Virus record (IMG/VR): IMGVR_UViG_3300012200_000002
Coordinates: 1-60,509 of that record
Reading direction: 5' to 3' (one strand)
Length of the DNA stretch: 60,509 bases
Source: a virus
Lineage: Duplodnaviria > Caudoviricetes
Shown here: in pieces, positions 11,082 to 53,762 of the stretch
Numbering within the stretch: position 1 is the first letter of the stretch
Layout of the letters: each line of letters starts with the position of its first letter
Made by a program: the position numbers and the translations under genes
The notes under the pieces: model-generated
What the model saw: only the letters and a program-made list of their open reading frames with translations
What the model was told of the DNA's origin: nothing
Database searches by the model: none

Positions 11082-11132
11082 TTGCAGGCATTGTTGCCAC
11101 CGTGTATATTGTAGTCATGAACCGCACCGACG
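11082..11132 (+). promoter_or_regulatory. Leaderless promoter + 5' tag, copy 4
   Basis: TTGCAG-17-TATATT-6nt-ATGAACCGCACCGACG. Confidence 0.85.
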
Positions 11133-12085: not shown

Positions 12086-12108
12086 CCGGCAGCACCAATC
12101 TATTTATT
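12074..12108 (+). terminator. Terminator-like hairpin
   Basis: GGTGCTGCC-TGACC-GGCAGCACC followed by an AT-rich tract. Confidence 0.6.
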
Positions 12109-12154
12109 GCAGCCATTGTGAGCATTGTGTATATTCTATCCATGGACCGCACCG
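12107..12154 (+). promoter_or_regulatory. Leaderless promoter + 5' tag, copy 5 (variant)
   Basis: TTGCAG-17-TATATT-6nt-ATGGACCGCACCG. Confidence 0.85.
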
Positions 12155-13811: not shown

Positions 13812-13872
13812 GCAAGTAATACTTGCTCGGCATTGGCTGCATTGAGTATATTGTCGGTATGAACCGCACCGA
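13812..13872 (+). promoter_or_regulatory. Operator + leaderless promoter + 5' tag, copy 6
   Basis: GCAAG-TAATA-CTTGC overlaps TTGCTC-18-TATATT-6nt-ATGAACCGCACCGA. Confidence 0.85.
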
Positions 13873-25279: not shown

Positions 25280-25981
25280 TCACAGCCCGCGGTGGTCGTA
25301 CTGGTAGCCAAGGGGCTGCGGGCTGGCCGCCCCTCGCTCGGGCCGCAGCGGGCCCTCGCCGGTCTGTCCGAATCGGCCGCCGCTGATCGACTGCGCACCG
25401 GCCAGGAACTGGCCGCGCTGTGGGTCGTCGATCGCCTCAATCTGCTGAGCTGGACCCTGGCGCTGGTGTTGGTTCCACGTCACCTGCACCGCGATCGACT
25501 GCGGCACGCTACAGATCTGGCCGACGAAGATCGGGAACTCGAGGCCATTGACCATGAACACGCGCGGCGGGAACTTGCCAGTGACCTTGTGGATCTTCAT
25601 CTCGTCGGCGTCCGGCTGGATGTACACCGGCTCGCGCACCTCGGTCCGCCAGGCCTCGAGCGTCGCGTCGCGCTGCTCTTTGTCGCGGCGCACCTCCTCG
25701 GCCAGGTTGCCGCGCCGATCGCTCTGCTGGTCGGTCCGCTGCTGCCCCATCAGGTCGAGGATCTGGCGCTGCTGCTGAGCGAGCTGCTCCTGCATTGTGG
25801 CCATCAATCGGAACATGTCCTGGGGCGTGATCTCGCCCACGTTGGGCGCCGCGTGAATGATCGGCTCGAGCGCGTGCAGCGCCTCCTCGGGATCCTTGTC
25901 GATGCGGTCCATCGCCGCCTGGGTGCCGTCAACCGCGCGCTCGAGCAGCGCCGCGGCCGGCCCGTCTGGTCTGGCGTTCAT
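25280..25981 (-). CDS. Capsid-adjacent protein
   Basis: ATGA coupling to the capsid gene; VFMVNG..F.I..G....VP motif recalled from genes following N4-gp56-type capsids. Confidence 0.65.
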   Translation of the reverse strand: MNARPDGPAAALLERAVDGTQAAMDRIDKDPEEALHALEPIIHAAPNVGEITPQDMFRLMATMQEQLAQQQRQILDLMGQQRTDQQSDRRGNLAEEVRRDKEQRDATLEAWRTEVREPVYIQPDADEMKIHKVTGKFPPRVFMVNGLEFPIFVGQICSVPQSIAVQVTWNQHQRQGPAQQIEAIDDPQRGQFLAGAQSISGGRFGQTGEGPLRPERGAASPQPLGYQYDHRGL

Positions 25982-26946
25982 CCAGCGACGGCCGTTTCCA
26001 CGCGCAGGATGCGCGCGTTGTCGAGGACCTTGGCCACGTACGCGACCTTCCAACCCGCCACGCCGTACTGTTGCAGGGGGTCAATCTTCGATGGCGTGTT
26101 GGCCGGCACGACCATGATGTCGACACCGGTCTCGTTGGTCTGCGGGTTCAACCCACCGACGGTCATCGACTCGAGGTCGGTCGTGCCGAAGGCGTTCGGG
26201 CCCCAGATGAGCGCGGCGTGGACGTCGATGCCCGCGGCGCCGCCAGCGGTGAAGATCGGGTTTTCAGTGGTGGTGTCGAAGTCCACGCCCTCGACCTCGC
26301 CCAGGGTGCCCGACAGGAACACACTCGGCGCCGAGTAGCGCATGATGTCCAGCCAGCCACCCGCGGCCGCGTCGGTCTTCAGGTCATACTTTTGCGATGG
26401 CGTGCACGAGCCGTGGTAGCGCCCGTCCGGGAAGCGCGGCACCTTGGTCTTCTCGAGGGTCCTGACGGCCTTGCGCACCTCAGCGGTGATGAAGTTCATG
26501 CCCGCGGCGACGGTCACGCGACTGGTAGCGGTGGAGGCGTACTGGACGCTCGAGCCGGCGCCCAGCTCGGTACTGGTGAGCGCGTGCACGCTCAGCCCGC
26601 ACTGCTCGCCCTCGACGTCCATGACGTTGCTCATGGCGGGGTCGATGCCCGCGCGGATCAACAAGTCGGAGATCTTCTGGAACGCGCCGTACTGGGCCAG
26701 GCTGGCGGTCACCTGGGTGATGGTCAGCGAGCCCTCGGTGGGCGGCACGCCCTCAGTCAGGGCCGAGGTGGCCGCCGGCAGCGCGCCCCACTTGCGCCAC
26801 TGGATCGTGGTACCCGTGTTGGAGCCGACGGTCTCCTGCATGCCATCCTTGAGCAGCGGCAGGTACGGGATGAGGCGCTTGAGGGTCTTGGCGATGTAAT
26901 AGGTACGCTGCTCAGCCGTCAGGCTGGCGTAGGTCTGCACGACCAT
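25978..26946 (-). CDS. Major capsid protein, N4-gp56 family
   Basis: GTTIQWRKW, LTEGVPP, LAQYG...ISD, DPLQQ...AGWK motifs. Confidence 0.9.
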   Translation of the reverse strand: MVVQTYASLTAEQRTYYIAKTLKRLIPYLPLLKDGMQETVGSNTGTTIQWRKWGALPAATSALTEGVPPTEGSLTITQVTASLAQYGAFQKISDLLIRAGIDPAMSNVMDVEGEQCGLSVHALTSTELGAGSSVQYASTATSRVTVAAGMNFITAEVRKAVRTLEKTKVPRFPDGRYHGSCTPSQKYDLKTDAAAGGWLDIMRYSAPSVFLSGTLGEVEGVDFDTTTENPIFTAGGAAGIDVHAALIWGPNAFGTTDLESMTVGGLNPQTNETGVDIMVVPANTPSKIDPLQQYGVAGWKVAYVAKVLDNARILRVETAVAG

Positions 26947-26968
26947 AGTGGGAGCTCCAGGGCAGGGA

Positions 26969-27955
26969 TTAGGACGAGCTGAGGTCGCGCCCGAGCCATT
27001 TGCCCTGGGCCACTTCACGCTCGAATTCCGGTTTGATCTGGCCGCTGGAATCGAAGGCGAGGTCCTGCCACCCGCGGCCCGACGGCACGGCGGGCCCGTT
27101 GGGGCCGGCTGGCTGCGGCGAGCGCACGAGCTGGTTGCGCTTCAGGCTCTTGTTTTCAGCCTGGAGACGAGCGATGGTCTGCTGCGCCTGGGCGCTGGCT
27201 CTGGCCTCGCCGGCGGCGAGGGCCATGGCATGCACGGCACGGATGGCAGAGATCGCGTCGGGAGCAGTGTTGAGCTGGGCCATGTGTTCAGTGCCGATGC
27301 CCTCGAGCTCGCCGAGGCCCTGCCAGTTGACGCCGTACTGGCGCTGCACTTGCTTTTCGGCCTCGCGATAGATCGGGCCGGCCAGCTCGTGCCACTGGCG
27401 CATCTCGACCGCGGTCTGGCGCTCTTCGGCCGTGGCGGTCCCGTTGAGCACCCGCTCGGCGAGCTGCTCGTACACGAACTTGCCTGAAGAGTCGCGTTCG
27501 TAGCCCGAGACTTTGCCGAGTTGGGTCAGGATGTGGCGCTGAGAGGCATTGACCTGCTCCAGCTCGCGCTGGGCAGTCTGCATGATGGTCCGAGCCTCGT
27601 CCCGCTCGCGCGTACGAACCTCGAGATCAGCGGCGAAACGCGCCGCATCACGGCGCGAGAACTTCGGTGGTTCGGTGGTCTGGGCCTCCGGCGCCACTGC
27701 GGCGGGTGCTGGCTCAGGTTGCTCCGCGGGCTGCTCGCCCTGTTCCTCGAGCTCGTCGTCGTCCTCTTGACCTTCGTCGTCTGTCTCGACTTCTTGCCAG
27801 TCTGGTGCGCCCGGCGGGGTTTCAGCCTCGAGGTCGCGTTGGGCGTTCGCGGCGATCGCCGCGTGCTCCATAGCTTCGTCGAGAGCTGCCAGCGTCGGGT
27901 TAGCGTCAGGTGGTGCCGGTGAGACAGCGGCGGATGCGGGCGACTGGGGCTGCAT
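26969..27955 (-). CDS. Putative scaffolding protein
   Basis: Acidic N-terminus and coiled coil; directly upstream of the capsid gene. Confidence 0.7.
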   Translation of the reverse strand: MQPQSPASAAVSPAPPDANPTLAALDEAMEHAAIAANAQRDLEAETPPGAPDWQEVETDDEGQEDDDELEEQGEQPAEQPEPAPAAVAPEAQTTEPPKFSRRDAARFAADLEVRTRERDEARTIMQTAQRELEQVNASQRHILTQLGKVSGYERDSSGKFVYEQLAERVLNGTATAEERQTAVEMRQWHELAGPIYREAEKQVQRQYGVNWQGLGELEGIGTEHMAQLNTAPDAISAIRAVHAMALAAGEARASAQAQQTIARLQAENKSLKRNQLVRSPQPAGPNGPAVPSGRGWQDLAFDSSGQIKPEFEREVAQGKWLGRDLSSS

Positions 27956-28028
27956 ACCGAAGGACTGGCCTCAGTATGCTCACCGCCGGCACCGCGGCGG
28001 ACCCGCCTGGGCGGGTGGTATTTAGTTA

Positions 28029-28078
28029 TTGGCTGCATTGTTGGCAATGCTGTATAACTACGAGCATGAACCGCACCG
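28029..28078 (+). promoter_or_regulatory. Leaderless promoter + 5' tag, copy 7
   Basis: TTGGCT-18-TATAAC-7nt-ATGAACCGCACCG. Confidence 0.8.
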
Positions 28079-28299
28079 CCCCTTCCACTGCCAACCGCTA
28101 CGGCGCCCACCAGGGCGTGACCTACCGCTACAGCGTCCGCGCCGTGCTCTCGCCGATGGCCTTCCGCTCGCGCGCCTACCTGCCCAGCGGCGCGGCCGTG
28201 TCCGGCTTCGGCAACACCCGCGACGCCGCCGTCGTCGACATGCAGAGTCGCGTCAACCTCGTCATCGACGACCGCCTGGCGCAGGGATGGCAGCCATGA
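28066..28299 (+). CDS. Hypothetical protein (MNRT start)
   Basis: ORF begins at the tag ATG. Confidence 0.8.
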   Translation: MNRTAPSTANRYGAHQGVTYRYSVRAVLSPMAFRSRAYLPSGAAVSGFGNTRDAAVVDMQSRVNLVIDDRLAQGWQP

Positions 28300-28630
28300 G
28301 CACAACCGGCCACGCCGTCAACGAGAACGGCCGGCACGTCCTCCTCTCACCTGATCACCCGGTCTGCGCCGAGTGCGAGCGTATCCGCACCACCCTCAGC
28401 GCAGAGGGGGCAGCCATGAGCCACCGCTGGGTCTTACAGACCTCACTGCCCAACGCCTTCCAGCACATCGCCATTCGCGCCGAGACCACCTCTTCGGTCG
28501 CTCTGTGCGGCAAGCGCGCCCGCATGGGCTTTGGAACAAGCGCTGGTACAACCTCGGGCACGAGCCGTTTCCTGGGCGGCGCCTCTGCCCGGTCTGCACG
28601 CGCCTAGCGACCGGGAAGGTGGCCCAGTGA
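28296..28630 (+). pseudogene. Cys/His protein apparently frameshifted near 28530
   Basis: HIA..ALCG half and RLCPVC half lie in different frames; the second frame's stop couples to the next gene. Confidence 0.5.
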
Positions 28631-28854
28631 CCATGATCACCCACGAGCACGCCGAGTACGTCACACGCGACGAGCTGGCCGCGCGGCTGGCCGAACTGGA
28701 GCTGCGCATCGCTGATCGCATTACGACGCTCGAGCGACGGATGGACGACCACTTCCGCGCCCAGACGCGGCTCATGCTCGGCATGCTCTTTTCGATCATT
28801 GGCCTGTACGCCGCGGTCGGCATCGGCGCGTTCGTGATTGCGGTGAAGGGGTGA
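28627..28854 (+). CDS. Coiled-coil protein with C-terminal TM (DUF1640/CCDC90-like)
   Basis: YVTRDEL neck, heptads, hydrophobic tail. Confidence 0.7.
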   Translation: MTMITHEHAEYVTRDELAARLAELELRIADRITTLERRMDDHFRAQTRLMLGMLFSIIGLYAAVGIGAFVIAVKG

Positions 28855-29102
28855 CCATCGAGGAGCGCCTCGTTCGGCTCGAGCAGCGCATCGACCAGCT
28901 CGACCGCATCGAAGAAGGCCTCGAAACCGTAGCAGGCGAGCTCAAGGGCTTTCGCGCCGAGTTCACGGACTTTCGAGCCGATCAGGCTCAGATTCTGGGT
29001 CGCATCCTCGCGACGCTCGACAGCCATGACCACACACTGCGTGAAATCGCCGACGTGCTGCCTCGTCTTGGATTCCGCTGGCCATGGGAGCGACGTCCAT
29101 GA
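28851..29102 (+). CDS. Coiled-coil protein ending FRWPWERRP
   Basis: Heptads; GTGA coupling. Confidence 0.75.
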   Translation: MTIEERLVRLEQRIDQLDRIEEGLETVAGELKGFRAEFTDFRADQAQILGRILATLDSHDHTLREIADVLPRLGFRWPWERRP

Positions 29103-29314
29103 GCATCGCTTGGATGCAGCGGCTGCGCGAAGCGGGCCTAACGCAGGAGCAGGCCGAGGCCATCGCCACCATGCCGGAAGACCGCTATGTGACCAAGGAC
29201 TACCTCGACGCGCGACTGGCGCAGCTCGAGACAGGCATGACCTGGCGGTTTCTGGGCATCGCCGGCCTGCTAGTCCTGCTGGTCGGCCTGATCGACAAGT
29301 TTGTGAGGCCATGA
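29099..29314 (+). CDS. DUF1640/CCDC90-like membrane-anchored protein
   Basis: LREAGLTQEQAEAI head, YVTKDYL neck, TM segment. Confidence 0.75.
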   Translation: MSIAWMQRLREAGLTQEQAEAIATMPEDRYVTKDYLDARLAQLETGMTWRFLGIAGLLVLLVGLIDKFVRP

Positions 29315-29574
29315 CGCTCGAAAATCTGGAGCTCCGCGTCGCTCGTCTCGAAGAGCACCAGGGCCTGGCCACCAAAGCTGACCTCGCCGCGGTACGTATC
29401 GAGCTCAGCCGTGACATCGCCAATCTGGCCACCGGAATCGGCAAGGATCTGCGCGACGTCCGGCAGGACCTGGCCACCGTCCATGCCGATCTCGGCGAGA
29501 TCCACACCGACCTCGGTGAGATTCGGCGCCTGCTCGAGCGCCGCGCGTTCCGCTGGCCCTGGGAGGCGCGCTGA
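29311..29574 (+). CDS. Coiled-coil protein ending FRWPWEAR
   Basis: LATKADL neck; heptad repeats. Confidence 0.75.
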   Translation: MTLENLELRVARLEEHQGLATKADLAAVRIELSRDIANLATGIGKDLRDVRQDLATVHADLGEIHTDLGEIRRLLERRAFRWPWEAR

Positions 29575-31716: not shown

Positions 31717-34700
31717 TCAGGCGGCGACGTCACTCCGCGGCGGCGTGAGCGGCAAGGTGTTGCCGGTCAGCGCCTGGAATTCAGCGGCGAGCTCGGCGCT
31801 GCGGCTCAGTCCGCCGTTGGTCTTGGCGTCGATCTTCTTGCGCTCGCGGGCCAGGACGTCGGCGTCGCGGTTGTCGCGCTGCGACAGGCGATAGGCGACC
31901 GGATCGTCGCGGCGTAGCAGCCGCTCGGCGCGATCGCGCGAGTCGTCCTTGCGCACTCCCATGGCCTCGAGGCCGCGCTGATACTCGGTCACGCGCGCCT
32001 TGGCGTCGCGCACGGCCAGGTTCTGCTGGGCGATCTCCTCGGGCGACTGGCTGCTCGAGATCCCACCGTAGTGCGGCACCTCGGTCCAGGCCAGCGCGGC
32101 CAGCTTACTGTCGCGGGCCTTGTCCGCGGCGTCCTTCTGGACCGGCGTGTTGGCCGCCTGCAGGTCCTTGTCGTACTGGGTGCTAATGCGCGTGCGCAGG
32201 TCGTCGTGGCTCAGGCTGGCCTGATACTGCTGGTTGGCCTGTGCGTCGGCCAGGCTGACCGCCTTCTGCAGCACGTCGCGCTTGAGGTTGTCGGGTGCGC
32301 TCTGGAACGACGGTGAGGCCGCGGCCGCGGGCACGATGCGATCGAGGATGGCCGCCCGATTCTGCTCGTACTGCATCTTCTCTTCTTCGGTCGGGTCCAT
32401 GCCAGCGACCTTCTTGACGCCAGGCAACGTCACCTCGTGCTCGCCCAGGACGCGTAGCGACTCGAGACCGGGCGTCCCCTCGGGGACCGCGCCAGGCGTG
32501 CGTAGTGGCAGGAGCTGCTGCAGCCCCGCGGCGGGGTTCAACTTGGGCTGCCCGAGCATGGTCGTCTGCGGGCTGAGCTCTCCACGCGTCCAGGGCAGAT
32601 TCTGCTGGAAGCCGGCCGCGATCGCCGGCAGGTAACTCAGCGGGTCGGACGGCGAGGTGCCGCTGGTGGGGATCTTGCGCGCCAGCGGGTCGTTGGCGCT
32701 GGCGAGGTTGCTCAGCCCCGCGGACAGCGGCACGTAGCCGCCGCCGGTGCCACCGATGAGCTGAGACAACGCGTACGGATCACCTTTGAGCACGTCGGCG
32801 GTGAGGCCGAGCTGCTGGATGCCTGGCGCGCCCTGGCCAAGGACGTCAAACACGTGCGTCGCGAGCTGCGCCGCGGTACCCGTCGGGTCGTCGGGATGCT
32901 CGCGCACCGCGTCGCCATAGATGCCGGCCAACTCGAACGGCGTTTTGAGCTGATCGGGCAGCCGCTGGGTGCTGTAGTACTGCCCGTTCGGCAGCAGCAC
33001 GCTCTTTGGCCGCCAGCCGCTGGCCTGCAAGTTGGCCATCGCGGTGGGGTCGGACGGTCCGTCGCCGGTGACCGTACCGTCGAGTGCTTTGGAGGCCAGG
33101 AACGACGTGATGGCTGTGCCGACGAGGTTGTGGGTCAGTCGGTCGGCCAATGGCGTGACCGCCTCACCGGTGCGCGAGAAGCGGCCTGGTTGCGGCGCAG
33201 TCGGCGTCCATGGGCCCGTGTTGGTCAGCCACTGCATGCGCTGTGGCGAGCCAGGTGGCGGTGGCGGCGGCATCCGCGGCGGAACTCGGCGTGCGTACGG
33301 ACCGAGGCCAACCTCGCCGCGGGCGACGTCGAAGGCCGTGCCGGCCAGTCCCAGCGGCGAGGCCTCGACGCCACGCGCGAAGCCGCGCGCACCGATCGAG
33401 AAAACCGGCAGCAGAAAGTTCGAGAGCGCGCCCAGCGCCGGCGTGTCGCGGATGTGGCTCAGCGCACGCTCGATCGCCGCCTGGCCGGTGCCAGCGGGCT
33501 GACGCAGCCCGGCGCGGTTGGCCAGGTCCTCAGCGCGCGCGACCGCCTCGGGCGGCAGTTTGCTCGGGTCAGCGATCAGGCTGGCGATGTCGCCGAGGCC
33601 CTGGATGCCGCGGCCTTTGAGCGACGCGACGTGCTCGCCCGCGGCGGCGCCGAGCTCCATGCGCCGCACCATCTGCGCCGAAACGTTTTGCATGCCGGCG
33701 TGCAGCCCGCCGCCCATGGCGTGCGTCGCGCCCAGGTAGGCGTCCACGAGCGGGTTGCCTGACCAAGTGTTGCCACCAGCCGAGCTGAAGCCGCTCAGGA
33801 AGTCGCGGCCCATCTCGGGCAGCGAGTGCAGTGTGCCGACCGTACGGCCCATGGCCCGGTCAAGGTTGAGCGTCAGCAGGTCGCGCCCGGTCTGGGTCCC
33901 GTAATTCCAGGCCGGTGAGAAGGCGCTATGCATGGCCACCTTGGCCGCGGTGGCCGGGCCCATGACCACGTTGCCCGAGTGGTACGCATTGACCAGCCTC
34001 GAGATCCCAGCGGTTGTGCCCGCGGCCCTGGCCACCTGGCCAGCCTGGACACCATGCAGCGCGCCCGCGGCACCCGTCTCGCCCAGGATCGAGCCGACGA
34101 CCGTGCGTACTGCACGTTCTTTCCAGTCGGTGTCCTCGGGCGTGGTCTCGTAGCCGGTTGCGCCGCCGGCCAGTGCGCCGCCCAGGTGCAGCGCCATCGG
34201 GAGCTGGATCTGGCCACCCTGGCGCCCACTGGTCGCGTTACGGATCTTGTCGAGCGCCTCGGGGAAGATGACGTGTGCGGTGTGCTCGATCGGTGCGCCG
34301 GTGGCATCGGTCATCGGTACCCGCTTGCCGCCGGCGTAGGTGATGCCATCGTAGCCAGCGTCGCGGAGCACCTTTTGTGGATCCGCTACCAGTTGCTCCA
34401 AGTGGCGGTAGAGCTCATCGCCGGTGGCGTTGTCTCGACCCAGCACCTGCGCCCGCAGCATCGGGTTGGTGTTCTCGGCCGGCAGCGCCGAGTTGATGAG
34501 TGCCTGCCTGGCGCCAGGTGGCAGCCGGTCCGCGATCGCATGCACGGCATCGGGTTGCATGCGCGCGTCGGCATCGAACAGGTTCATGTCTTGCGGCACG
34601 TCGACCGCGCGCACGTTGGGACCTGACGGCGAACGCATCCTAGCGAGCTGCTGCTCATAGATCGCCGCGGCCTGCTCCTGCGCATCTGCGTAGCCGCTTG

Positions 34701-37700
34701 AGCCGCGCGCGCGGGCGTCCTGGGCCTGTGCTCGAGCGGTATCGGCAGCACTCTGCACATCGGCGATGTCCTGCTCGGATGGAAGCGGCGCAGCTCGCTG
34801 CTGGGCATAGCCGGGCTCGATGACATCGCCGGGGTAACGCTCGGTTGGGTAGGACACATCGACACCCAGGCGGGCGGACGCGGCCGCGTCACGCACGGGT
34901 TGTCCCGTTTCGCCGCCGCGCGCGACGGTGCCGCCGGCCACGCGCGGGTCGCTGGTCAGGTAGTAACCGGGCCCGTACAGGTTGTCCCCGCCGCGGATAG
35001 CCGACGGCTGGACGCTGGGGAAGTCGGCGCTCGTGCCGTGGTACATGCGCCTGGTGCCGGCCTCAGCCTCAGCCTCTCGCCCCAGAGTGGCCGCGCCGGT
35101 CTGGCGCGCCCTGGCTGCTGCTTGCAGGCGGTCCATTACGCCGCCGGCACGCTCGGCGAGGCCTACGCCCTCGGGGTTACGCCTGAGCAGCTCGCCGACA
35201 CCGACGTGGGCGCCGCCGAAGCCGAGGCCTGCGCCGCCAGCGATGCGTAGTCCACGCTCGAGCGGCGAGGCGCCCTCGGGAGAGGTCTGATCGGCGGCCA
35301 CGCCGCCAGCGACGGCGCCGGCAAAGTCGGTCGGTAGGGTGGGTCGCAGCCCACGCGTGCTCAGGTCGCCCGGCAGCACGCCGGTGGTGGCCTGGGCGCT
35401 GGCACGTCGGGCGCGCTGCAGCGCGCCGCTCAGGCTTGCGGTGGCGGTTCCTGTCGCGTCGAGCGTGGCGGCCGCGGCTTGTTGGGTGGTTGCGGCGGCG
35501 GCGCCTGGCGCTTGGGCAGCCCGACCCATGGCCCGCTCGAGTAGATCGGATCGTCCGGGGGTAGTGGGTCCGAAGAGACCCCCAAGCTCTTGAGTAATTC
35601 CTGGTACGTCTGCTTGTCCGACATCGCTGAGTACTCCACGGTAGGCCCTGGCCTGTGACGGCGCAAGGCCAGCTTGCGTTATGGCATTGATTATACTGGC
35701 GGCAGCATCAGCATCATTAGCATTGTCGTATGGCACCTGCAGCGAGCGGCCGGTGGTCGTCTCGACGACCGAGTGACCGGCCTGGTGCAGCGCGTCGCGC
35801 GCGCTGGTCATCTCCTCGGGCGTGCCGAAGATGGCCATGCCGATGTCGTCGAGGGCCTGGTGGTCGGGGATGTGGATCGGCACGCGATCGGCGCCCGTGG
35901 CGCGCGCGACCTGGGCGCCGACGTACTGCGCGGTGTCCTCGTTGCCGGCGGGCAGGTGGACGGCGTACTGGCCTGGCGCGACCTCACGCACACGGTGGCT
36001 GGCGGTCAGCCAGGGGAAGGTGTTGTTTTCGTCCATACCGAGCTGCGCGGCGGTGGCGGCGTCCAGACCGCCCACCAGCGGCGCACCAGCTTCCTGAGCG
36101 ACACGCGACTGGGCACGAAACTCGGCGTTCGCCGCGCGCGCCGGTCGCGCCGCGGGTTTGGTCGGCGACAGGCCGGAATACGAGCGCTGCATGCCCTGCC
36201 CCTGCAGCGGCGGGGGCTGCTTGATCAGATCACCAAACTTGTCCATCTCGGCCTTGACCGTGGGGTGGTTCATGACCGTGTCGATCTCGCCGCCGAGCTT
36301 CTGGTTGAAGACGCCGCGCTCCTCGCCGAGGCGGATGGCCTGCATCTTGTCGCCGTTTTTCCACATGTCCTCGAGCTCGGGGTCGCTGAACAGGTGGCGG
36401 ACCGCGCTCCACAGCAGCGACTGCATCTGCATGCCGTCCATGCCACGTTCGTTAGCCAGCTCGTTGAAGACGCCCTCGACGCCGCGATAGGCGGTGTCGT
36501 CGTTGGCGGCGTTGTTGAACGCCTTGCGGACCATCGGGATCTTGTCGCTGACGCGCGCGGCCTTCCTGGCCGCCTTGGCCTGCTCTTCGGGCGTGCCGTC
36601 GGCCGCGGCCTGGATGATCTTGTCGCGCGTCGCCTGGGCTTCCGCTTTGAGCTGATCGATCTTGCCCTGCCCGACGCCCGGTGATAGCTCGTCGGACAGG
36701 TTCATGATCTGCCAGTCCCAGGTGTCGTTGGTGATGCGCGGGTCGAACAGGCGGTGCTGTGCCGAGTCGTAGTTGCCGGAGAACGAGCTGGTCTTCGGCG
36801 CGCCCTTCACCGGCGCGACGCCGGTCGTGTACCCCTCGGTCGCAAAACCGCGCTTCTGCGGGTGGGTGTAGGACATCATCGGCAACGTGTCTTTGTCGTT
36901 GATCGCGTCGACAACGGCCTTCTCGATGCTGGCCGCGGTCGCGCCTGGCTCCTTGGCGGCGTCGATCGCCACCTGGCGGACGGTGCCCATGGTGCGGATC
37001 GACTCGGCGACCTGATTGGCCAGCGGCGTCTGTGAGGACATGATCGAGTTGAGCGCGAACCACTCGTCGGTGTTGTTCGGGCCGACCACACGCGCGGCGT
37101 CATCGGCCTGGTCGGCGTAGAAGTCGCGCTGGCGCAGGCTGGTGTCGGCGAGCTCGCGCAGCTCGTCCATGTGCGGCATGCCGCCCTTGTTGAGGGCCAT
37201 GACGCGCGTGCCCTTGCCCTGCAGGTCGAAGGGCAGGATGTCCTTGGACAGGTCGTTCAAGTCGAGGTGCGCGCGCCCATCACCGACGACCGTGTTGCCC
37301 TCGCGATCGACGTAGCTCGGCGCCGCAGCAGCCGCGCGCGCGGCGGCGTCGAAGCGCGACTCGGGCGTGTCCGCGTCGTAGTTGAAGGGGCGTTGCACAC
37401 CTGCGGAGCCGGCCCGTTGGCGTGCCGCTGCTTCCTCGACGCCGGTTGTGGCCGCGCCCGACTGACGCGCGCTCACCAGGCCGCGCAGGCGGTCCATGAC
37501 GCCGCCACCCGCCTGGGTCACGTCACCACCAGCGGCCGCGGCAGCCTCGGTCGGCGCCTGGCCAAGGTTGGCCATGATGTCCAGGGCCCGCTGACGTGCG
37601 CCGCGGCCCAGGTTCAGCGCGGTGTCGACGGCCGGCAGCGCGATCGTCGTGCCAGGGATGCCGGCGCGGAAGTCACGTGACAGTGGCTTGCTGAACACAT

Positions 37701-40686
37701 CTCCGGCGGCCTGGGCGATGTCAGGAAAACGCTCGGCGGCCTGGCTGGCCAGCTCGGCCGCACGTTCCGCACCAGGTGCGCGCGCGGCCACCTCGAGCGC
37801 ACGCCCGGCCAGGTGCGGACCGACCGCCAGACCTGCACCCAGCGGATCGGCGGCGGCGGCGGTAGCTTGCAGCGCGGCGGGCGCACCACCACCGGCGATG
37901 CTGCCCGCACCGCCGAACAGGACGCTGATCAGCGCCTGGTTTTTCATCGCCTCATCTTGATAGTCAGAGAGGCGCGGATTCGCGCGTGCCAGCGCGTCCA
38001 TGTCCTGGGTGCCGAAGCGCGAGCTGAGCTGCTGGCGCAGCTCCTCGTAGCGATCCGAGTCTTCGGGCGACGCCTGGCCGCTCTGCGGCGCTCGAGCGCG
38101 GATCGCCTGCATCTCGTCGTCGAGTGAGCGGTACTCGGGATCCTGGTCGCGGAGCTGGTCGTGGGCGGCCAGCACGCGCGCGTTGTAGACCAGCGGGCCG
38201 CGTGGATCCTGGGTCCAGTCCCAGGCGCCGCGGACTTGCGACGGCAGCGTCAGTGGGCCGACCTTGACCGGCTCGCCCTCACCGCGCAGCTCGGCCGCGG
38301 TCTGCTCGCGCTGCGGGCCGAGGCCGGCCCAGTTGGCCAGACCGCCGGCCGCGCGCAGCGCGATCTGGTCGGGCGTATTGGCCGTCAGGTCCTGCGCGGT
38401 CTGCACGACCTGGCCAAGCATGTGGCCGCCGTCCGGAGCGTTGTTGCCGCCGTAGCGATTGGCCTGCTCCTGGTGGAGCTGCTGGGCGTACGCGGTCGCG
38501 GCCTCAGGCGTGGCAAATACGCCCAGGTGCTTGCCGCTCGCGCGGTACTGCGCGATAGCTTCCTGGTTGGTCATGACCCGCCCGTCGTCGCTGACGGTCG
38601 GGATCAGCACTTCACCGTCATCAGTGCCGATGGAGATCGAGCGCACGGTGCTGATCGAGCCATCGGGATTGCGCACCACCGGACGATTGGTCAGGTCGAT
38701 GTTGCCTGGGGTAATCAGCCCTGGCGCTGGCGGCGCCTTCGGCTCGGGCGGGGTGTTGCCGGTGCCGAGCGGGTTGGTGAGCTGGTCGCTCGGCACGGTC
38801 TGGCTGCCCGCGGGCTGACCGGCTGGGCCACCACCGAGCAGGTGCTGGAACAGGTCGGTAAAGGCCGAGCCGAGCTGGGTACCGAGCTGCTGGACGCGGC
38901 TCTGGCCGCTGTCAACTGCAGGCGTCGTGACCGCTGGCGTCTCAACCGGCGCTGGCGTGTACGGCAGGCGATTGATGCCCTGGTCGCTCGTCGTGCTGGT
39001 CTGAGCCGCGCCGTAGCTGCCCTGCTCGTTGCGCAGGTCCTGCAGCCGTCTGGTCGTCTGCTCATCCATCGCCAGGCGCGGATCCACCCACGGCTTGGGT
39101 GGCGTCGCTTCAGTGGTCGTGGTCGTGGTGGTTGGCGTGGTCGTGTCGGTCGTGGTGCCGCTGCTGACCACCGGCTGGCCACCGCCGAACAGGCTGCTGT
39201 AGTTGCTGCCGGCACGCTCGGGTGAGACGGACACCTGGCCATACTGCTGGGCGTAGGTGGCCAGCTCGGCGCCGCTCTTGCCGAGCTGGATGCCTTTCTG
39301 GATGACCGCGCCGAGATAGCCAGGTTTGTCCGCCGTGCCAATCGCCCAGCGCACCGCGTCGGACGGGTGCTGCTCGACCCAGTCCTTGGCCGCGTCCAGG
39401 GTCATGCCCAACTGGCTGGCCAGGTTGGCGAGCTGGCCGCCCTCGTAGAACTGCAGCGGGCCAGCGCTCTTGCCGTTGTCGCCGCGGGCGTTGTTGAGGC
39501 CGCCCTCGGTCACCAGCACGGACTGCAGCGCCTTTTGGCCCTGCTCGCCGAGCCAGCTCGCGGCCTGCGCGCCCTGGCTCATGATCTGCTGGCCGCGCTG
39601 GCCAATCTGCCCGGACAGGTCGCCACCGCCACTCAGGCCGGCCGTCGTCTGGGTGGCCGCGGCGGCCGCGCCCGCGGGACCACTGGCCGTGCTCGGTGCG
39701 GGCGTCTGCGGGTTGTCGGCGAACAGCGCGCCCTGGACCGGGCCCATGAGTGCGGTCATCTGAGCCGGCGTCATCCACTCGGCGCCGCTCTTGAGCGCCG
39801 TGCCGCTCTTACCCACGTGGAAGGCACCCGAGGTCGGGTCGTAGCCGTCGGCGAAAAAGTAGTGCCCGCGGGTGCTGATGGTGACCGGGTTGCCGGTCTG
39901 CGCCTCGTTGGCGAAGGCCGACCAGTTGTCGCCAGGGACCAGGCGCGTGGGCACCTGGAGCTTGTCCATGAGCGCTTTTTCGGAGCTGAGCCCGGCCATG
40001 CCCGTATCGCTCGTCCAGCCCACGCCAGCGGCCAGGTTGGTGGCCTCGCGCAAGGTCGGGTTGCGCCCCTCGCGCATGGCGAAGTTGACCGCGGCCGCGG
40101 GCCCGCACGCGGCGTAGGCTTCGTCGCTGGTGAGCTGCGGGTCGCCGAACTGCGAGACCTGGGCGCCTGGCTGCACTGGCGGCGTGGGATTCTGGAGCGG
40201 GTTGGTGAGCTGGTCGCTGGGCATGACCGGCGGCAGCGCGGCGGTCTGCGCAGTGAGCGTCTGGGGTGCCGACGGCGGCGCGCTGGGGGCGAGGCCGGCG
40301 CGCTGGGTCAGGTCATTCCAGGTCGAGGTGGCCTGATCGGCCACACCCTGGGTCGCCTGCTGCACGCCCTGCTGTGCACCCTGCACACCTTGCTGTACCG
40401 CCTGGGTGCCCTGCTGGAGGCCCTGTGCGGCCGCCTGGACGGGCGCGCTCAGCCCAGCTCTCCCGAGCAGGTCGTTCAGGTCGAAGGGCCCTGGCATGGG
40501 CGCTGGGGGCGCCTGTGGCGGTGTGGGCGGTGTAGGCAGCGGTGGCGGCGGGGTGACCTCGGGCGGGATGCTCGCGTCGGGTGCCGGATTGGCGTCCAGG
40601 TCCTGCTGGGTGAGGTCGGCCTGCTGGGCGGCCGCGTCTTTGTGCCACAGGTCGAGGGTGTCGCGCGGCAGGCTGATGGGCGGCAT
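31717..40686 (-). CDS. Giant polyvalent virion/ejection protein (2989 aa)
   Basis: C39-like peptidase, lysozyme-like, glycosylase-like and ADP-ribosyltransferase-like motifs; see findings. Confidence 0.85.
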
Positions 40687-49185: not shown

Positions 49186-50718
49186 TCATCGGATCCCCGC
49201 GAGCGCAGCTTTGGCCCAGTCGGGCGGGCCCTGGGTCTCCTCGTACACGACGCGCGCGGTCTTGCCCAGCAGCAGCATCCTCGAGCGGATGCTCTCGAGC
49301 TTTTCGACGGACATCCTGACCAGGTAGGCCAGCGCGTCGATCTGGTCGTCGTGCTCGCTCTTGGGGAACATCGACATCTCGCGCGACAGCAGCGGCCACC
49401 AGGGCGCGCGGCGGTCGACGGTGATCAGCCCGGCCTTGGCCCGGCCAGGGATGATCATGGCCCTGGTCACCTTGTCGTTGTCCGCGGGGATGGCCTCGAA
49501 CGAGCAGCTAAAGCCGCGGTTGTTGCAGAAGATCTCCAGCCGCCGGCACAGGTCCATCGTCGCGCCTTGCTTTTCGAAGGCGCGCTTTTCGATGCCGACC
49601 ATGATCGGCCGCCACAGCAGGATCCACTCGCCGATCATGTCCTCGTGGCGTGCGTCCGAGAGGTGCTCGCGGAAGACGTCGATGATGTGCAGCCGCGGCA
49701 AAATGGCCTTGCGTTCGACGGCGCCCAGCATGCCCACGGTCCAGTCGGCGGTCTCGGCGTCCGAGTAGTTCAGATCGAGCGTGGCGATCAGGTCGACGGT
49801 GTCCGTCTCGAGGCGCGGCGTCTGCGGGAACCAGGCCTGGTTGAGCACCATGCCGGCGCGCGGCGTGGGTCGCTGCTGGTACTGCGCCGAGTAGGCGTAC
49901 GGGCCGAGCTGGATGGCCCGCTGGCGCATCGTGTCGCGGTTGAAGCGCTCGGGCGTGAGCAGTTCGCCCTCGGTCGTGCGCTGGTCGTGCGGCGCGCCGC
50001 TCAGCGAGCAGAAGTCCGGGCGGTCTTCACCACTCGGCGGCTCGTACTCCTCACGAAGCTCGATGTGGTGGACGGTTGGCCCCTCGCGCTCGAGCCACTC
50101 GGCGGTCGCGTCTTCCTCGTGCACACGCTGGCCGATCACTACTCGCGCGCCACCGGGCAGGACGCGGCTGGGGAAGACCTCGCGCAGGGTGGTCAGGGTG
50201 GCCGAGCGGATGGCCTCACTCTCAACGCGGTTGACGTTGTGCGGGTCGTCGACCAGCACGAAGTGCGCGTGGTGGCTGGTGACCGCGCCGTTGACGCTGG
50301 TGGCGATGCGCCAGCCGGTGCGGTTGTTCTGGTACCAGCTCTTGACGTTCTGGTCGCCGGCGAACGACCACGGCTCGAGGATGCGCCGCTGGTACCACTC
50401 GGAGCGCATCAGCAGGCGCGTGCGCTGCGCGTCGCGGATGGCGATCGCGTCGTCGTAGCTGGTGGTCAGCCAGCGCGTCCAGGGCGCCCAGGTCCAGCAC
50501 CAGGCCGGCCACAGCACGGCGCAGATGAGCGACTTCGACGAGCCCGGCGGCTCGTTGATCAGCAGGTCGCGTTCGTCGAGCTCACCCAGGCTGAGGGCCT
50601 GCAGGTGAGCGCACAGCACCGTGATGTGCCAGCCGTGGACGTACGGCACGCTGGGCTCGAGGATTGGCCAGGCGCCGCGTACGAAGTCCTCGAGGTCCAG
50701 TGTTGGGCGCGCATCAGG
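49186..50718 (-). CDS. terL: Terminase large subunit (no convincing own start; see frameshift finding)
   Basis: LLINEPPGSSKS Walker A-like, VLVDDPH Walker B, YSAQYQQRP, and HDDQIDA nuclease motif. Confidence 0.9.
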   Translation of the reverse strand, partial: PDARPTLDLEDFVRGAWPILEPSVPYVHGWHITVLCAHLQALSLGELDERDLLINEPPGSSKSLICAVLWPAWCWTWAPWTRWLTTSYDDAIAIRDAQRTRLLMRSEWYQRRILEPWSFAGDQNVKSWYQNNRTGWRIATSVNGAVTSHHAHFVLVDDPHNVNRVESEAIRSATLTTLREVFPSRVLPGGARVVIGQRVHEEDATAEWLEREGPTVHHIELREEYEPPSGEDRPDFCSLSGAPHDQRTTEGELLTPERFNRDTMRQRAIQLGPYAYSAQYQQRPTPRAGMVLNQAWFPQTPRLETDTVDLIATLDLNYSDAETADWTVGMLGAVERKAILPRLHIIDVFREHLSDARHEDMIGEWILLWRPIMVGIEKRAFEKQGATMDLCRRLEIFCNNRGFSCSFEAIPADNDKVTRAMIIPGRAKAGLITVDRRAPWWPLLSREMSMFPKSEHDDQIDALAYLVRMSVEKLESIRSRMLLLGKTARVVYEETQGPPDWAKAALAGIR

Positions 50719-51235
50719 GCTCGGCGTCCAGGCTGCCGTTTCGGGTGGCAGGGTCGGGCTCGGGGAGCGGTCGCCACTCGAGCTCGTCGGGTTCAAAATT
50801 GAGAGACCGGATGAACCGGGCGACCTGGTTCCAGGCCACTTCATCCAGTCGGGCCAGTTGATCAGCGCTTTGTCTTTCGATGTAGCCGGGTCGAGCAGTT
50901 GATCGGGCGCGATTCGCAATACTCTGGAGGTTGGCGATGATCGCGTCGTAGACATAGCGGGCTATGCGCTCTCTGCTGCGATCGCGGCCGTCGTCGTGGC
51001 CGATCGGGACGTCGTCGACTTCCTGAAAATCGGTGACCTTGGGCGTGCGTACGCCGAAGGCCTTGAGGTGGTCCTTGTGCCAGAACTGCACGGTCTGGCG
51101 GCTGACCCCGAGCTTGGCAGCCAGGGCGCGCGCGGTGGCGGTGCCGGCGATGATGGCGGCCACGGCCTCAGCACGCTGCTCGGCGGTGATGTCGTGGCGC
51201 TGGCGTCGGTCGATCGGAGGGCGTTCGTCGGCCAT
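50714..51235 (-). CDS. terS: Putative terminase small subunit (HTH)
   Basis: N-terminal HTH (ALAAKLGVSRQTVQFW); directly upstream of terL. Confidence 0.7.
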   Translation of the reverse strand: MADERPPIDRRQRHDITAEQRAEAVAAIIAGTATARALAAKLGVSRQTVQFWHKDHLKAFGVRTPKVTDFQEVDDVPIGHDDGRDRSRERIARYVYDAIIANLQSIANRARSTARPGYIERQSADQLARLDEVAWNQVARFIRSLNFEPDELEWRPLPEPDPATRNGSLDAEP

Positions 51236-51367
51236 TGCACGTGGGCTGCTGGCCCAGTATGGGCAGCGGCATAGGTGTGAGGGACCCGCCTGCACGGGCG
51301 GTTTTGAGATGGCCTCGTGATGCCATGGGCAGCCACCGCGGGCCCGTCGTGCAAGCACCATTTGCCT

Positions 51368-51727
51368 ATGACGATCGAAGCAGTGGAAATGCTCTCTGTC
51401 CGCGCTGCAGCCAAGCTTTTGGCCATGTCCACCCGCACTGTCCGGCGCTATTGCGAGCGCGGTGATCTCAGGGGTGAGCGCGGCGCGGACGGCTGGACAG
51501 TCAGCAAGGCCGAGGTAGACCGCTATGTGGCTGCACGGCGGTCACGCACTCTGATAACGCCAGGCTCAAGGTCGATCATTCGTCTGGCGCTGCCGGCCGA
51601 GCGCAGCTCGCTCGATGAGATGAACGCCAAGCTCGATCGCGTGCTCGAGCTGCTCGAGGAGCGAGAGCAGCAGGCGCTGCCGCAACCGCGTAAAGCGTGG
51701 TGGTTGCGCCTGGTCCGCGCGAGCTAG
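51368..51727 (+). CDS. Excisionase/MerR-like HTH protein with coiled coil
   Basis: LSVRAAAKLL..STRTVRRYCERGDL...W; ends KAWWLRLVRAS. Confidence 0.8.
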   Translation: MTIEAVEMLSVRAAAKLLAMSTRTVRRYCERGDLRGERGADGWTVSKAEVDRYVAARRSRTLITPGSRSIIRLALPAERSSLDEMNAKLDRVLELLEEREQQALPQPRKAWWLRLVRAS

Positions 51728-51754
51728 TTCGTCTGACTTGCGCTAAGCTGTGAG

Positions 51755-51841
51755 GGTCAGCTCCCGTCGGTGCGGTTCATATAACACTTGCGGGGGTTCG
51801 GCCACACTCCGCGGGGCGTGAGACCTCAAGGCTCGCGCCCC
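51755..51841 (+). ncRNA. Candidate antisense sRNA complementary to the ATGAACCGCACCG tag
   Basis: Possible -10 TAAGCT at 51744-51749; CGTCGGTGCGGTTCAT at 51765-51780; two hairpins with G-U pairs that form only on the + strand. Confidence 0.55.
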
Positions 51842-52032
51842 GTAGAGCTCCGCTCTGCAGCGGCCCTCTTGCGTACGAGCCGCGCCCACTGCCGGTCGAT
51901 ATGCGACTCGATTGCGATTAGCGCATATGCGCGCGGGTCGCGGCGGTCATCCGCGGCGAGCTCAGAGAGTTTGCGCCAGCGATCCTCATCGAGCTGCAGG
52001 TCGCCCAGGTGCACACGGCGAGACGGCGTCAT
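51826..52032 (-). CDS. Possible ribbon-helix-helix protein
   Basis: GGGAGG SD; LQLDEDRWRKLSELAADDRR...IAIESHI pattern. Confidence 0.65.
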   Translation of the reverse strand: MTPSRRVHLGDLQLDEDRWRKLSELAADDRRDPRAYALIAIESHIDRQWARLVRKRAAAERSSTGREP

Positions 52033-52161
52033 ACCAGCGGTCCTCCCAGTCACAGCCAGTGCGCTCGCAGTACGCCCGCCCAGGGGCGAAGCGGACCAGG
52101 TGACCGAACAACGGCCACAGCCAGCCCGTGATCCACCACTCGCCGATGCGGCAGCGCAGGG

Positions 52162-52605
52162 TCATTCACGGTCGAGCAGCAGGCGCAGCAGGGCGTTCTG
52201 CGCCTGGGTTACCGCGGCCAGTTGTTTGAGCGACCAGGCGATGTCAGCCAGGGAGCGTTCGACAGTAGGTGGCGTGGGGGGCTTCTCGAGCTGACCGTTG
52301 GGGTTGAGCTGAGCGAGCGCACGGCGGATCTTGCGCACGTGCGTCTGGCCGATGCCGTGGCACGCGAGCAACTCCACGTCACTGGCCTGGGCCAATTCGT
52401 CGAGCGTTGCGTAGCCGTTGTTGACCAGGATGTGGGCGGGCACCGGCCAGTCGCGATCGCTGCGGCCAAGCTCTGCGCGCAGCGTGCCAATCACGACGTC
52501 ATGGTGGCGAGCACACCACCAGTGTTTGCCGTTGCGCCAGTCATATGCCATTGAATCGCCACACACCTCGCAGGGGTGCGACTCGACAAACTCCTCGAGT
52601 GTCAC
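52162..52605 (-). CDS. Zn ribbon plus RNAP alpha-CTD-like HhH domain protein
   Basis: CEVC; ILVNNGYATLDELAQASDVELL..HGIG...VRKIR. Confidence 0.7.
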   Translation of the reverse strand: MTLEEFVESHPCEVCGDSMAYDWRNGKHWWCARHHDVVIGTLRAELGRSDRDWPVPAHILVNNGYATLDELAQASDVELLACHGIGQTHVRKIRRALAQLNPNGQLEKPPTPPTVERSLADIAWSLKQLAAVTQAQNALLRLLLDRE

Positions 52606-53762
52606 TTCGCTACAGGGAAGGCCTCGCCAGCGCGTGTGCCAGGGCCGCGCTGGGCGTGCCAGGTCAACTGCTGCATCTGTTCGCCAGCGCGCCAGGCGTT
52701 CCAGGCCTTGATGCCCAGCGCCACCAGGTGCTCACGGTCGGCGAGGCCATTGGGCATGCGCTTGTCGGTGATGAGCCGATTGCGAAAGCGCAGGATGGGG
52801 CTGTCGCGCTCGAGCTGGGCGCCAGTGCTGAGCGACTCGGCAAAGATGTACGTCGCGTCGCGATCGACGCGCAGCAGCAGCACGAGCAGTATCCCGAGCA
52901 ACCCCGCTCCACCGGCCAGGCCGGCGCTCCTGACCTTGTTGGCCAGCAGCACGCCATCCTCCACCTCGTCGTGCTCCTTGACGTAGCGCAGTAGGGCGGT
53001 GTGGCTGATCAGTGGATCCAATTCCTTGCGATTAGGTGGGTCGAGGCGGCCGCTGGCTTCGATCAGGACCAGGCCGCGCGCCGCGGACGCGAGGGCCACA
53101 CGGTTCTGGTAGCCGGCGATGCCCAGCACGTCGCCGGGCGTCCTGTTTTTGCCCGTGTCGAAGACGGTGAAGTCCTCTTCACCGACGCCGCGGATGACCA
53201 CCGAGCGGATCGTCAGGCCAGCCGCGACGACCGCGCTCAGGCGGTGCTTGCCGTCGCGTACGCGACCCTGTGCGTCGAGCTTGATGGTGTCCCCGGTGAG
53301 CCGCCACTCGCCACGCCGGATCGCATTGGCGTATCTATTTACGCGGCCTTTGGTCGGTACACGGTTGTTGCCGCCACGGGCCAGCCAGGCCTGGGCTGTG
53401 GCCGGGCTGATCTCCATGATCTCGATCGACAGCGGCGCGCCCTGACCCAGGTCGAGCCCATTCAGGCTGAGCGGTGTCGCCTCGACAGGCGGCTGCTTCG
53501 CAGTAGCGACGCGTCGAAAGGAGCCGCCGCCGTGCGCGTCGCCAGGCAGCAAGCTGCTCTTGGGGACGTACTGGGTCATGAAGATGTCGTAGGCCAGCGA
53601 GTGCGTGCGGTTCTCGTCCACCTTCTGGTTGCCCATCGCCACCCCGCCGCCTCGGTTCTGGAAAAAGACGCTCACGCCGTTCGTGTCGGAGACCTCAATT
53701 TCGGCCTCGGCGTGCTTGCCACGCTTGCGTATCCAGCGTGTACCAGGTGCGGGCCTGGTCAT
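52602..53762 (-). CDS. ParB/Srx-like domain protein
   Basis: ISPATAQAWL..NNR...YANAI..GEW...DGKHRLSAV. Confidence 0.75.
   Translation of the reverse strand: MTRPAPGTRWIRKRGKHAEAEIEVSDTNGVSVFFQNRGGGVAMGNQKVDENRTHSLAYDIFMTQYVPKSSLLPGDAHGGGSFRRVATAKQPPVEATPLSLNGLDLGQGAPLSIEIMEISPATAQAWLARGGNNRVPTKGRVNRYANAIRRGEWRLTGDTIKLDAQGRVRDGKHRLSAVVAAGLTIRSVVIRGVGEEDFTVFDTGKNRTPGDVLGIAGYQNRVALASAARGLVLIEASGRLDPPNRKELDPLISHTALLRYVKEHDEVEDGVLLANKVRSAGLAGGAGLLGILLVLLLRVDRDATYIFAESLSTGAQLERDSPILRFRNRLITDKRMPNGLADREHLVALGIKAWNAWRAGEQMQQLTWHAQRGPGTRAGEAFPVAK

Follow-up and report, generated by a model that had tools for sequence, protein, structure and literature searches.

Why should the reverse complement of a sequence that opens seven genes lie in a short gap between two convergent genes of the same phage genome? 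The question is raised by the complete IMG/VR virus record IMGVR_UViG_3300012200_000002, whose 60,509 bp (68% G+C, with a 123-bp terminal repeat) make up the window that we analyzed. Seven genes of this uncultured soil phage begin, a few bases downstream of the −10 element of their promoters, with a nearly invariant sequence of 13 nucleotides (nt), which we call the tag. The inverted copy, or anti-tag, is found at 51765-51780 behind a gene for a helix-turn-helix (HTH) protein. Our proposal, which we advance tentatively and with a little less than even confidence from sequence comparison and modeled RNA structure, is that the 3′ untranslated region (UTR) of the HTH gene, or a small RNA (sRNA) processed from it, occludes the initiation codons of leaderless early mRNAs.

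The tags belong to promoter cassettes of a common design. Among the 13 AT-rich islands of the genome (at least 57.5% A+T), seven have the same promoter-tag layout, in which an A/T-rich stretch is followed by TTGCAG or TTGGCT (CTGGCG in one cassette), then by 17 to 18 nt that hold CATTG or CAATG, and then by a −10 element that reads TATAAT, TATATT, or TATAAC. The spacer between the −10 element and the ATG is 6 nt in five cassettes, 7 nt in one, and 8 nt in one, and in 7/7 cases this ATG starts an open reading frame (ORF) of 77 to 334 aa. All seven cassettes are on the + strand and share the opening ATGRACCGCACYG, with one-base variants in cassettes 2 and 5. Cassette 1 (7216-7265) has a −35-like TTGGCT, the −10 element TATAAT at 7239-7244, an 8-nt spacer, and the tag ATGAACCGCACCG at 7253, a form of the first 13 nt that is found in five cassettes. 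Five cassettes with 6-nt spacers follow: cassette 2 (8263-8310; TATATT at 8286-8291; tag ATGAACCGCACTG at 8298, a C>T variant), cassette 3 (9169-9216; TATAAT at 9192-9197; tag at 9204), cassette 4 (11082-11132; TATATT at 11105-11110; tag at 11117, matching the anti-tag at 16/16 positions and opening a gene with a DUF6011 domain), cassette 5 (12107-12154; TATATT at 12130-12135; tag ATGGACCGCACCG at 12142, an A>G variant), and cassette 6 (13823-13871; TATATT at 13847-13852; tag at 13859). Cassette 7 (28029-28078) has TATAAC at 28053-28058, a 7-nt spacer, and its tag at 28066.

A strict consensus promoter scan scores one of the seven tagged promoters (7216-7244); the remaining six match the −10 hexamer at 5 to 6 of 6 positions, but have TTGCAG or TTGGCT as their −35 element. 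Judged by promoter geometry, the cassettes appear to be sigma-70-like and leaderless. The 45 nt upstream of the tags are just 60 to 77% alike between cassettes, so the tag is kept far more tightly than the promoter itself. Terminator-like hairpins lie on the + strand directly upstream of promoters 5 (12074-12096) and 7 (28001-28016), and these two cassettes, at least, have the appearance of self-contained transcription units insulated from their surroundings. The product of tagged gene 1 (7253-8257) is 41 to 47% identical, over ~58% of its length, to DpdA-like tRNA-guanine transglycosylases of Mycobacterium, Arthrobacter, and Rhodococcus phages, a likeness that hints at 7-deazaguanine DNA modification as an early function.

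Codon choice indicates that the constraint on the tags acts on nucleotides, beyond the peptide MNRT. The tags use CGC in 7/7 cases, ACC in 6/7, and AAC in 6/6 (p ~7e-4 given the codon usage of the genome), and base 13 is G in 7/7 (p ~1.4e-3). Furthermore, both deviations from the core are transitions that still pair with the anti-tag as G-U. The Thr codon of cassette 2 is ACT, which makes up 3.4% of Thr codons, rather than ACG, which makes up 34%. Such wobble-compatible variants are suggestive of RNA pairing.

The ORF at 11117 opens with the 16 nt ATGAACCGCACCGACG, of which the anti-tag, CGTCGGTGCGGTTCAT when read on the + strand, is an exact reverse complement; the 13-nt core that all tags share corresponds to 51768-51780. 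When the genome was searched with up to 3 mismatches allowed, 9 matches were found against 0.97 expected, a number that 0/100 shuffles reached. These comprise six + strand tags, the inverted copy, and two others (25897 and 36690, − strand, 3 mismatches each, inside ORFs) that appear fortuitous. The promoter layout, and not the mismatch search, revealed the seventh tag (12142, ATGGACC...). There are thus eight copies of the 13-mer, seven on the + strand exactly at ORF starts and one inverted, and exact 13-mers expected by chance on the − strand number ~0.0015. By these counts, the repeat set, including its inverted copy, is not a product of chance. The initial annotation had described the exact complementarity at 51765-51780, with pairing over 16 nt to copy 4, 14 nt to copies 1 and 6, and 13 nt to copies 3 and 7, and it had noted that the variants in copies 2 and 5 become G-U pairs. 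All of this agrees with the sequence: copies 2 and 5 pair over 13 nt with one G-U each, and 7/7 tags pair over at least 13 nt. A micro-ORF at 51757-51780 on the − strand (MNRTDGS-stop), which is the sense reading of the eighth copy, is likewise present and lacks a cassette-type promoter, as that annotation had said. No AT-rich cassette lies upstream of it, and the site is preceded by a weak terminator-like hairpin and then TGTTATAT. The inverted copy retains its ATG, though no promoter there drives translation. Hexamers of the sequence CTTGCG adjoin the anti-tag, but they are frequent genome-wide (n=60). Finally, the gap that holds the anti-tag is identical in contigs of four DNA sequencing runs (X1-X4) from three studies, an identity that shows only that the strain is the same, and two of the runs may be the source of the record.

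The strand on which the anti-tag is read matters for the predicted structure. For the + strand of 51728-51850, the predicted folding energy is −60.9 kcal/mol (z −4.10, with 0/200 shuffles as good), and for the − strand it is −45.0 kcal/mol (z −1.38). Hairpin 1 (51755-51803, + strand) has a 13-bp basal stem with several G-U pairs and carries the anti-tag core in a loosely paired apical region of 22 nt, while the three extra nucleotides of the 16-mer belong to the basal stem. Its predicted energy is −24.2 kcal/mol on the + strand (z −3.18, with 0/200 shuffles as stable) and −9.9 kcal/mol (z +0.74) on the reverse strand. Hairpin 1 is thus strand-specific, and the G-U pairs of its stem turn into A-C mismatches on the other strand. 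A strand difference this large occurs in 9/3023 windows of 55 nt across the genome, and the local mean strand difference is −0.75 to −2.3 (sd ~4.5-5). Hairpin 2 (51807-51847), a GC-rich stem-loop found in the folds of both strands, extends over the stop codon of the convergent − strand gene and is probably a two-way transcript end. Two hairpins had been claimed for this gap, with G-U pairs that favor the + strand. Two do form, but the one placed at 51790-51813 is rather the 3′ arm of the hairpin at 51755-51803 that encloses the anti-tag, the second is the stem-loop at 51807-51847, and the strand-specific one of the two is hairpin 1.

The modeled energies are compatible with contact between the loop and the tags. 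In hairpin 1, the bases UCAU have unpaired probabilities of 0.99 to 1.00, and the two preceding bases (GU) of ~0.45 to 0.48. Opening would cost 0.54 kcal/mol for the 7-nt seed GGUUCAU and 6.7 kcal/mol for the 13-nt core, and opening nt 1 to 13 of the seven targets, each within its first 60 nt, would cost 0.24 to 2.5 kcal/mol. Predicted duplexes with the seven 5′ ends range from −22.6 kcal/mol (cassette 2) to −31.5 kcal/mol (cassette 4). On this modeling, pairing is physically expected if both RNAs are present together.

The genes on either side of the 98-nt gap are convergent. The upstream gene (51368-51727, + strand, with a start more likely at the ATG at 51389) encodes an excisionase/MerR-like HTH_17 protein (PF12728, E 5.2e-9, 36.7 bits against a cut-off of 27), in line with the HTH gene that had been annotated beside the anti-tag. 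The facing 68-aa gene (51826-52032, − strand) had been called ribbon-helix-helix-like, a label that was not borne out: its only match is to TraY, at a sub-threshold E of 0.13. According to an ORF map based on third-position G+C content and to the ORF list, the HTH_17 gene is the sole + strand gene from ~31.7 kb to the right end. It is divergent from TerS, which places it at the border of the upstream − strand genes and the packaging/structural operon. The anti-tag starts 38 nt past the HTH_17 stop codon (37 nt between) with no intervening hairpin, so any HTH mRNA should carry it.

Some further features surround the HTH_17 gene. Upstream of it, on the + strand at 51286-51310, is a GC-rich hairpin followed by TTTT, at a place where no gene of that strand terminates. 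Exact copies of the 10-mer TGTGAGGGWC are found at 51276 and 51749, on either side of the gene, but the 10-mer was rejected as a meaningful repeat: with one mismatch, 4 copies were found against 8 expected, which is not above chance. The two flanks of the gene do not align with each other, and an exact 9-mer screen of 28 intergenic gaps revealed no common motif that would mark non-early promoters. Over 50600-53000, differences among the four sequencing runs stem solely from a separate contig (4,091 nt, depth ~15 in X1, and represented by shorter contigs in X2-X4) that is ~90% identical to the window over 51867-51985 and diverges on both sides. This suggests that the 119-bp part of the 68-aa gene is a mosaic module common to another element in the same soils.

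Under our proposal, the anti-tag would be a functional + strand RNA element, made as the 3′ UTR of HTH_17 transcripts and possibly trimmed to a two-hairpin RNA of ~90 nt. The stem of hairpin 1 would present the 13-nt anti-tag with GGUUCAU exposed in the apical loop. This loop would first meet the unstructured 5′-terminal AUGAACC of the seven leaderless early mRNAs, and the contact would grow into a duplex of 13 to 16 bp. With a start codon at the extreme 5′ end buried, no ribosome could load, and all seven cassettes would be turned off together. The early cassettes would be shut off when the HTH gene is transcribed, in what is likelier to be a switch from early to middle or from early to late genes than one to lysogeny. 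We infer from the sequence that the mRNAs are leaderless, that the HTH mRNA reads through the anti-tag, and when and in which direction control would act. A trans-acting antisense RNA had been suggested in the initial annotation. The sequence, the + strand hairpin, the exposed seed, the duplexes, the open targets, and the constraint on the tags fit that reading, with contiguous complementarity from the A of the start codon in 7/7 tags and a strand-specific structure with an accessible seed. A promoter of its own for such an RNA found no support.

Several observations weigh against the proposed mechanism. A promoter scan of 51200-52300 on both strands detected no promoter-like site, either for the HTH gene or for a separate sRNA. 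The hexamer TAAGCT, which had been offered as a −10 element, is present at 51744-51749 on the + strand, but the same scan does not mark it as a promoter. An own promoter is not needed if the element is part of the 3′ UTR, and the lack of a separate sRNA promoter makes that version the more economical one. Hairpin 2 has no U-tract on the + strand and so does not qualify as an intrinsic terminator that would set the 3′ end of the RNA. Taken by itself, the folding energy of hairpin 1 is unremarkable, since −24.2 kcal/mol or better is reached in 11.7% of window-strands, and the + strand folds on average 1 to 2 kcal/mol better wherever genes are on the − strand. Furthermore, the two hairpins nearly fill the 98-nt gap, so any element placed there would overlap one of them, and the chance of the core landing in the apical 22 nt is ~0.12. 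The wobble argument is based on just two positions. No RNA sequencing run was found to contain the phage. In addition, a search of Rfam, which had been put forward as a check of novelty, matched no family: the scan of the whole window at the gathering threshold gave 0 matches, the best local E-values (2.7 to 9.9) belonged to unrelated miRNA and leader models, and RF01695 (C4) had no match at E <= 1.

If tags and anti-tag work together, relatives should be informative. Relatives of the tagged genes are known as proteins only, and where several proteins are assigned to one relative genome, this is inferred solely from the equal size of their longest contig. For protein 3, there are 16 non-self homologues. 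Two of them, P0003 (70% identity) and P0015, start MNRTAS. Two others, P0004 (67%) and P0005 (64%, on a 15,393-bp contig), read ...YIVHV-NRTAS and ...LYIVVV-NRTAS, where the gene caller ran through the −10 element; these N-termini imply that a TATATT −10 element and a spacer precede a GTG start codon, after which NRT is encoded. P0011 begins with MSRT, and P0002, the closest homologue (84%, on a 62,061-bp contig), starts MSLTSS. The remaining 10 have other starts, mostly Thr-rich. For protein 4, the tag is found in 1/40 non-self homologues, namely P0019 (84% identity, on a 38,786-bp contig), which reads ...YTVHV-NRTD. Five of 120 listed homologues of protein 1 were read: P0060 (70%, on a 9,972-bp contig) starts MNRT, P0061 (71%, on a 49,710-bp contig) reads ...ILFIV-NRT, P0062 and P0063 are without the tag, and P0059 is the window's own protein with a later start called. 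The 9,972-bp relative (P0003, P0060) thus has MNRT on 2/2 known tagged genes, and GTG-NRT is found on 2/2 in the 49,710-bp relative (P0004, P0061) and on 1/1 in the 38,786-bp contig (P0019). These N-termini suggest that the tag outlives 30 to 36% protein divergence, that one close relative carries a different tag, and that the start codon appears to have switched in concert across tagged genes. Such a pattern would call for a trans-acting reader or for gene conversion, and it does not distinguish a reader made of RNA from one made of protein. Many distant homologues of protein 3 (among P0006-P0016) and one of protein 4 (P0028) begin M/V-T-T-T-T. A different clade may thus have a second type of shared start tag, or the N-terminus may simply be inherited.

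DNA of relatives was sought in several ways. Searches with TerL yielded 5 loci at 51 to 55% identity in viral contigs, with only TerL and portal in common, and 8 loci at 28 to 62% identity in metagenome contigs, none of them a usable relative. The combined promoter and tag pattern gave 1 single match in viral contigs, in an AT-rich giant-virus bin, and 4 single matches in genome contigs from four unrelated phyla; a guessed MSLT-type tag gave 6 matches, in AT-rich phages, and a GTG-type tag 3 single matches. These candidates were rejected. An alignment search with protein 3 led to an IMG/VR genome of 43,371 bp (G001, locus L020) at 60% identity, which was set aside as well, with no TerL match and a marginal HTH match (E 0.0012). 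Near 25790-29430, this genome has four repeated promoter cassettes with a conserved GGAGATCC Shine-Dalgarno leader, not a leaderless tag, and a fifth promoter (TATAAT, 6 nt, ATG) that looks leaderless. Contig searches with the 386-aa neighboring protein and with the HTH protein retrieved no relatives' DNA, and blastn and tblastn of the locus and of protein 3 against deposited phages and plasmids found none.

An argument can be made that the 13-mer is not an RNA address at all. It may be an asymmetric DNA operator whose cognate phage or host protein shuts the seven early promoters by occupying +1 to +13. We regard this main rival as unlikely, although it accounts equally well for the eight sites and for the frozen synonymous positions, which counts against the antisense proposal. 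The eighth site would then serve as a roadblock or stoperator that separates the packaging/structural operon from the upstream − strand genes, in a region that is mainly transcribed on the − strand, and the "barcode" in the first codons would be merely the footprint of an operator on leaderless genes. Eight asymmetric 13-mers, seven at promoters and one in a short intergenic gap, each oriented with most of its neighboring genes, fit what PMC9283540 describes for mycobacteriophage L5, in which 13-mer asymmetric sites lie at promoters and in short intergenic spaces and are oriented with transcription. The orientation of the eighth site is ambiguous in this respect, as it lies between convergent genes, and the set comprises 8 sites with 1 outside a promoter, versus >20 in L5 according to the same source. 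Candidate binding proteins are encoded, including HTH_3 (5223-5729), HTH_31 (4791-5057), and the HTH_17 protein beside the site, but PDB sequence searches with the 168-aa HTH_3 protein and the HTH_17 protein found no solved repressor (best E 0.087 and 0.22, to unrelated proteins). Furthermore, an RNA hairpin that is specific to the + strand and displays the site would not be expected from a DNA operator, which also leaves unexplained why conservation begins exactly at +1, why the eighth copy kept its ATG, and why the rare ACT was chosen over ACG.

The remaining alternatives keep the eighth copy but give it another role, or none. We think it improbable that it is a relic of a former cassette, or a gene-conversion tract from cassette 4, with no present function. 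Its positions 14 to 16 exactly match cassette 4 (~0.1 expected for a match to any of the seven), and GTGTTATAT directly upstream resembles GTGTATAT in the −10 region of the cassettes, which would fit a deletion of ~9 nt. Cassettes also seem to evolve in concert, with a GTG start in 3/3 known tags of the GTG lineage. Yet a relic would have to keep a 16/16 match undecayed while nothing remains of the AT-rich 45-nt promoter, inside a stable strand-specific hairpin and identically in the contigs of the four runs, though the latter shows only that the strain is the same. Very improbable, in our view, is that the tag is the sense-strand operator of an RNA-binding repressor analogous to T4 RegA, with the eighth copy as a − strand decoy, autoregulatory site, or micro-ORF. 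PMC3014915 provides a precedent in RegA, which competes with ribosomes at the initiation regions of ~30 mRNAs, and the eighth copy does keep an ATG and an open frame of 7 codons. The − strand, however, has no cassette upstream, a terminator-like hairpin just before the site, no significant fold there, and no gene downstream to regulate. A search for the RegA family (PF01818) had no match in the window, which is weak evidence, as 14 control genomes were also silent. Least probable of all is the reverse direction of control, in which the 5′ ends of early mRNAs open hairpin 1 and alter the stability or termination of the HTH transcript, so that HTH expression senses the amount of early mRNA. Complementarity and energies are identical in this case, and seven strong cassettes would outnumber one 3′ UTR. 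It requires an effect of hairpin 1 on the fate of the HTH mRNA, for which none is known, and sequence cannot distinguish it from the antisense block that we favor.

The rest of the genome bears on the kind of switch that is involved. The − strand carries most genes, among them TerS, TerL, and portal as well as an ORF of 2,989 aa, and the tagged genes sit in a + strand block at ~5.2 to 15.5 kb and in a short + strand block near 28 kb. Searches of the genome for tyrosine integrases and serine recombinases found none, and both searches were positive in control genomes. The phage is therefore treated as probably lytic, and the suggestion that the anti-tag serves a lysogeny switch is weakened. A divergent pair at 4791-5729, HTH_31 (88 aa, − strand, 4791-5057) and HTH_3 (168 aa, + strand, 5223-5729), lies 165 bp apart, with seven CTTGCG/CGCAAG hexamers within 5045-5171. 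It looks like a CI/Cro-type switch, in a phage without detectable integrase. In the structural region, the 2,989-aa ORF (31717-40686, − strand) has no PHROG match at E 1e-5, and likewise the adjoining ORFs of 571, 640, and 762 aa. A 68-nt repeat is found in six diverged copies (62 to 87% identity to the reference copy) within a 1,142-aa ORF at 20966-24394 on the − strand, which suggests a repetitive fibre-like protein. Among deposited phages, blastn of the anti-tag locus matched 0, and relatives of TerL reach just ~30% identity.

A wider idea, which we hold more loosely and consider rather doubtful, is that, in a lytic phage, the first codons of all leaderless early genes contain a 13-nt address, that one antisense element in the 3′ UTR of a regulator gene reads it and silences the regulon at once, and that address and reader co-evolve into classes (MNRT, GTG-NRT, MSLT) like immunity groups. 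Leaderless mRNAs have no 5′ UTR and hence lack the usual targets of sRNAs, such as the Shine-Dalgarno region and the leader, and to our knowledge their post-transcriptional regulation is largely an open subject. A full-text literature search for phage antisense RNA acting on leaderless mRNAs found no such system among the matches listed, which is not proof that there is none in print. Among the closest known systems is c4 of P1 and P7 (immI operon; Rfam C4, RF01695). This structured antisense RNA is encoded by the phage, acts in trans on a translation initiation region, which it covers, and owes its specificity to short complementary segments. The candidate described here would also be a phage antisense RNA over a translation initiation region. 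But c4 targets the leader of a single operon beside its own gene, whereas the anti-tag is one site that matches the first 13 nt, including the start codon, of seven leaderless mRNAs 16 to 44 kb away, and its locus has no sequence or structure match to RF01695. Known examples of 3′ UTR-derived bacterial sRNAs are chromosomal and mostly Hfq-dependent, and they pair with 5′ UTRs near Shine-Dalgarno sites. Compared by fold only, the anti-tag RNA would resemble them as a regulatory RNA that has its terminator and 3′ end in common with an mRNA, with an accessible loop seed upstream of a terminator hairpin.

Two systems of protein repressors offer further comparisons. Cluster A mycobacteriophages of the L5 type have, according to PMC9283540, >20 asymmetric 13-mer sites, which occupy promoters and short intergenic spaces and follow the direction of transcription. 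An asymmetric site of ~13 bp is likewise repeated at promoters (7) and in an intergenic gap (1) here, but seven of our eight sites begin precisely at the inferred +1, where they make up the first codons. Furthermore, the eighth lies within a strand-specific RNA hairpin. Systems of the L5 type have a two-domain monomeric repressor, and PDB sequence searches with the HTH_3 and HTH_17 proteins found no repressor homologue. Should the sites be DNA operators after all, L5-like asymmetric operators would be extended to a phage without detectable deposited relative and without integrase. T4 RegA, as PMC3014915 describes it, shuts off ~30 early mRNAs post-transcriptionally at their initiation regions, in competition with the ribosome. 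The resemblance is that many early mRNAs would be shut off after transcription through their initiation regions; the difference is that RegA is a protein with loose A+U-rich operators, whereas the candidate effector here is an RNA and its target an exact GC-rich 13-mer within coding sequence. If the antisense proposal is true, the operator must lie within coding sequence, and a single short RNA could silence an entire temporal class as an RNA counterpart of T4 RegA. A 13-nt tag and a hairpin of ~50 nt would make a compact, portable design, reusable for multiplex control of leaderless genes, and a new variation on known phage antisense control.

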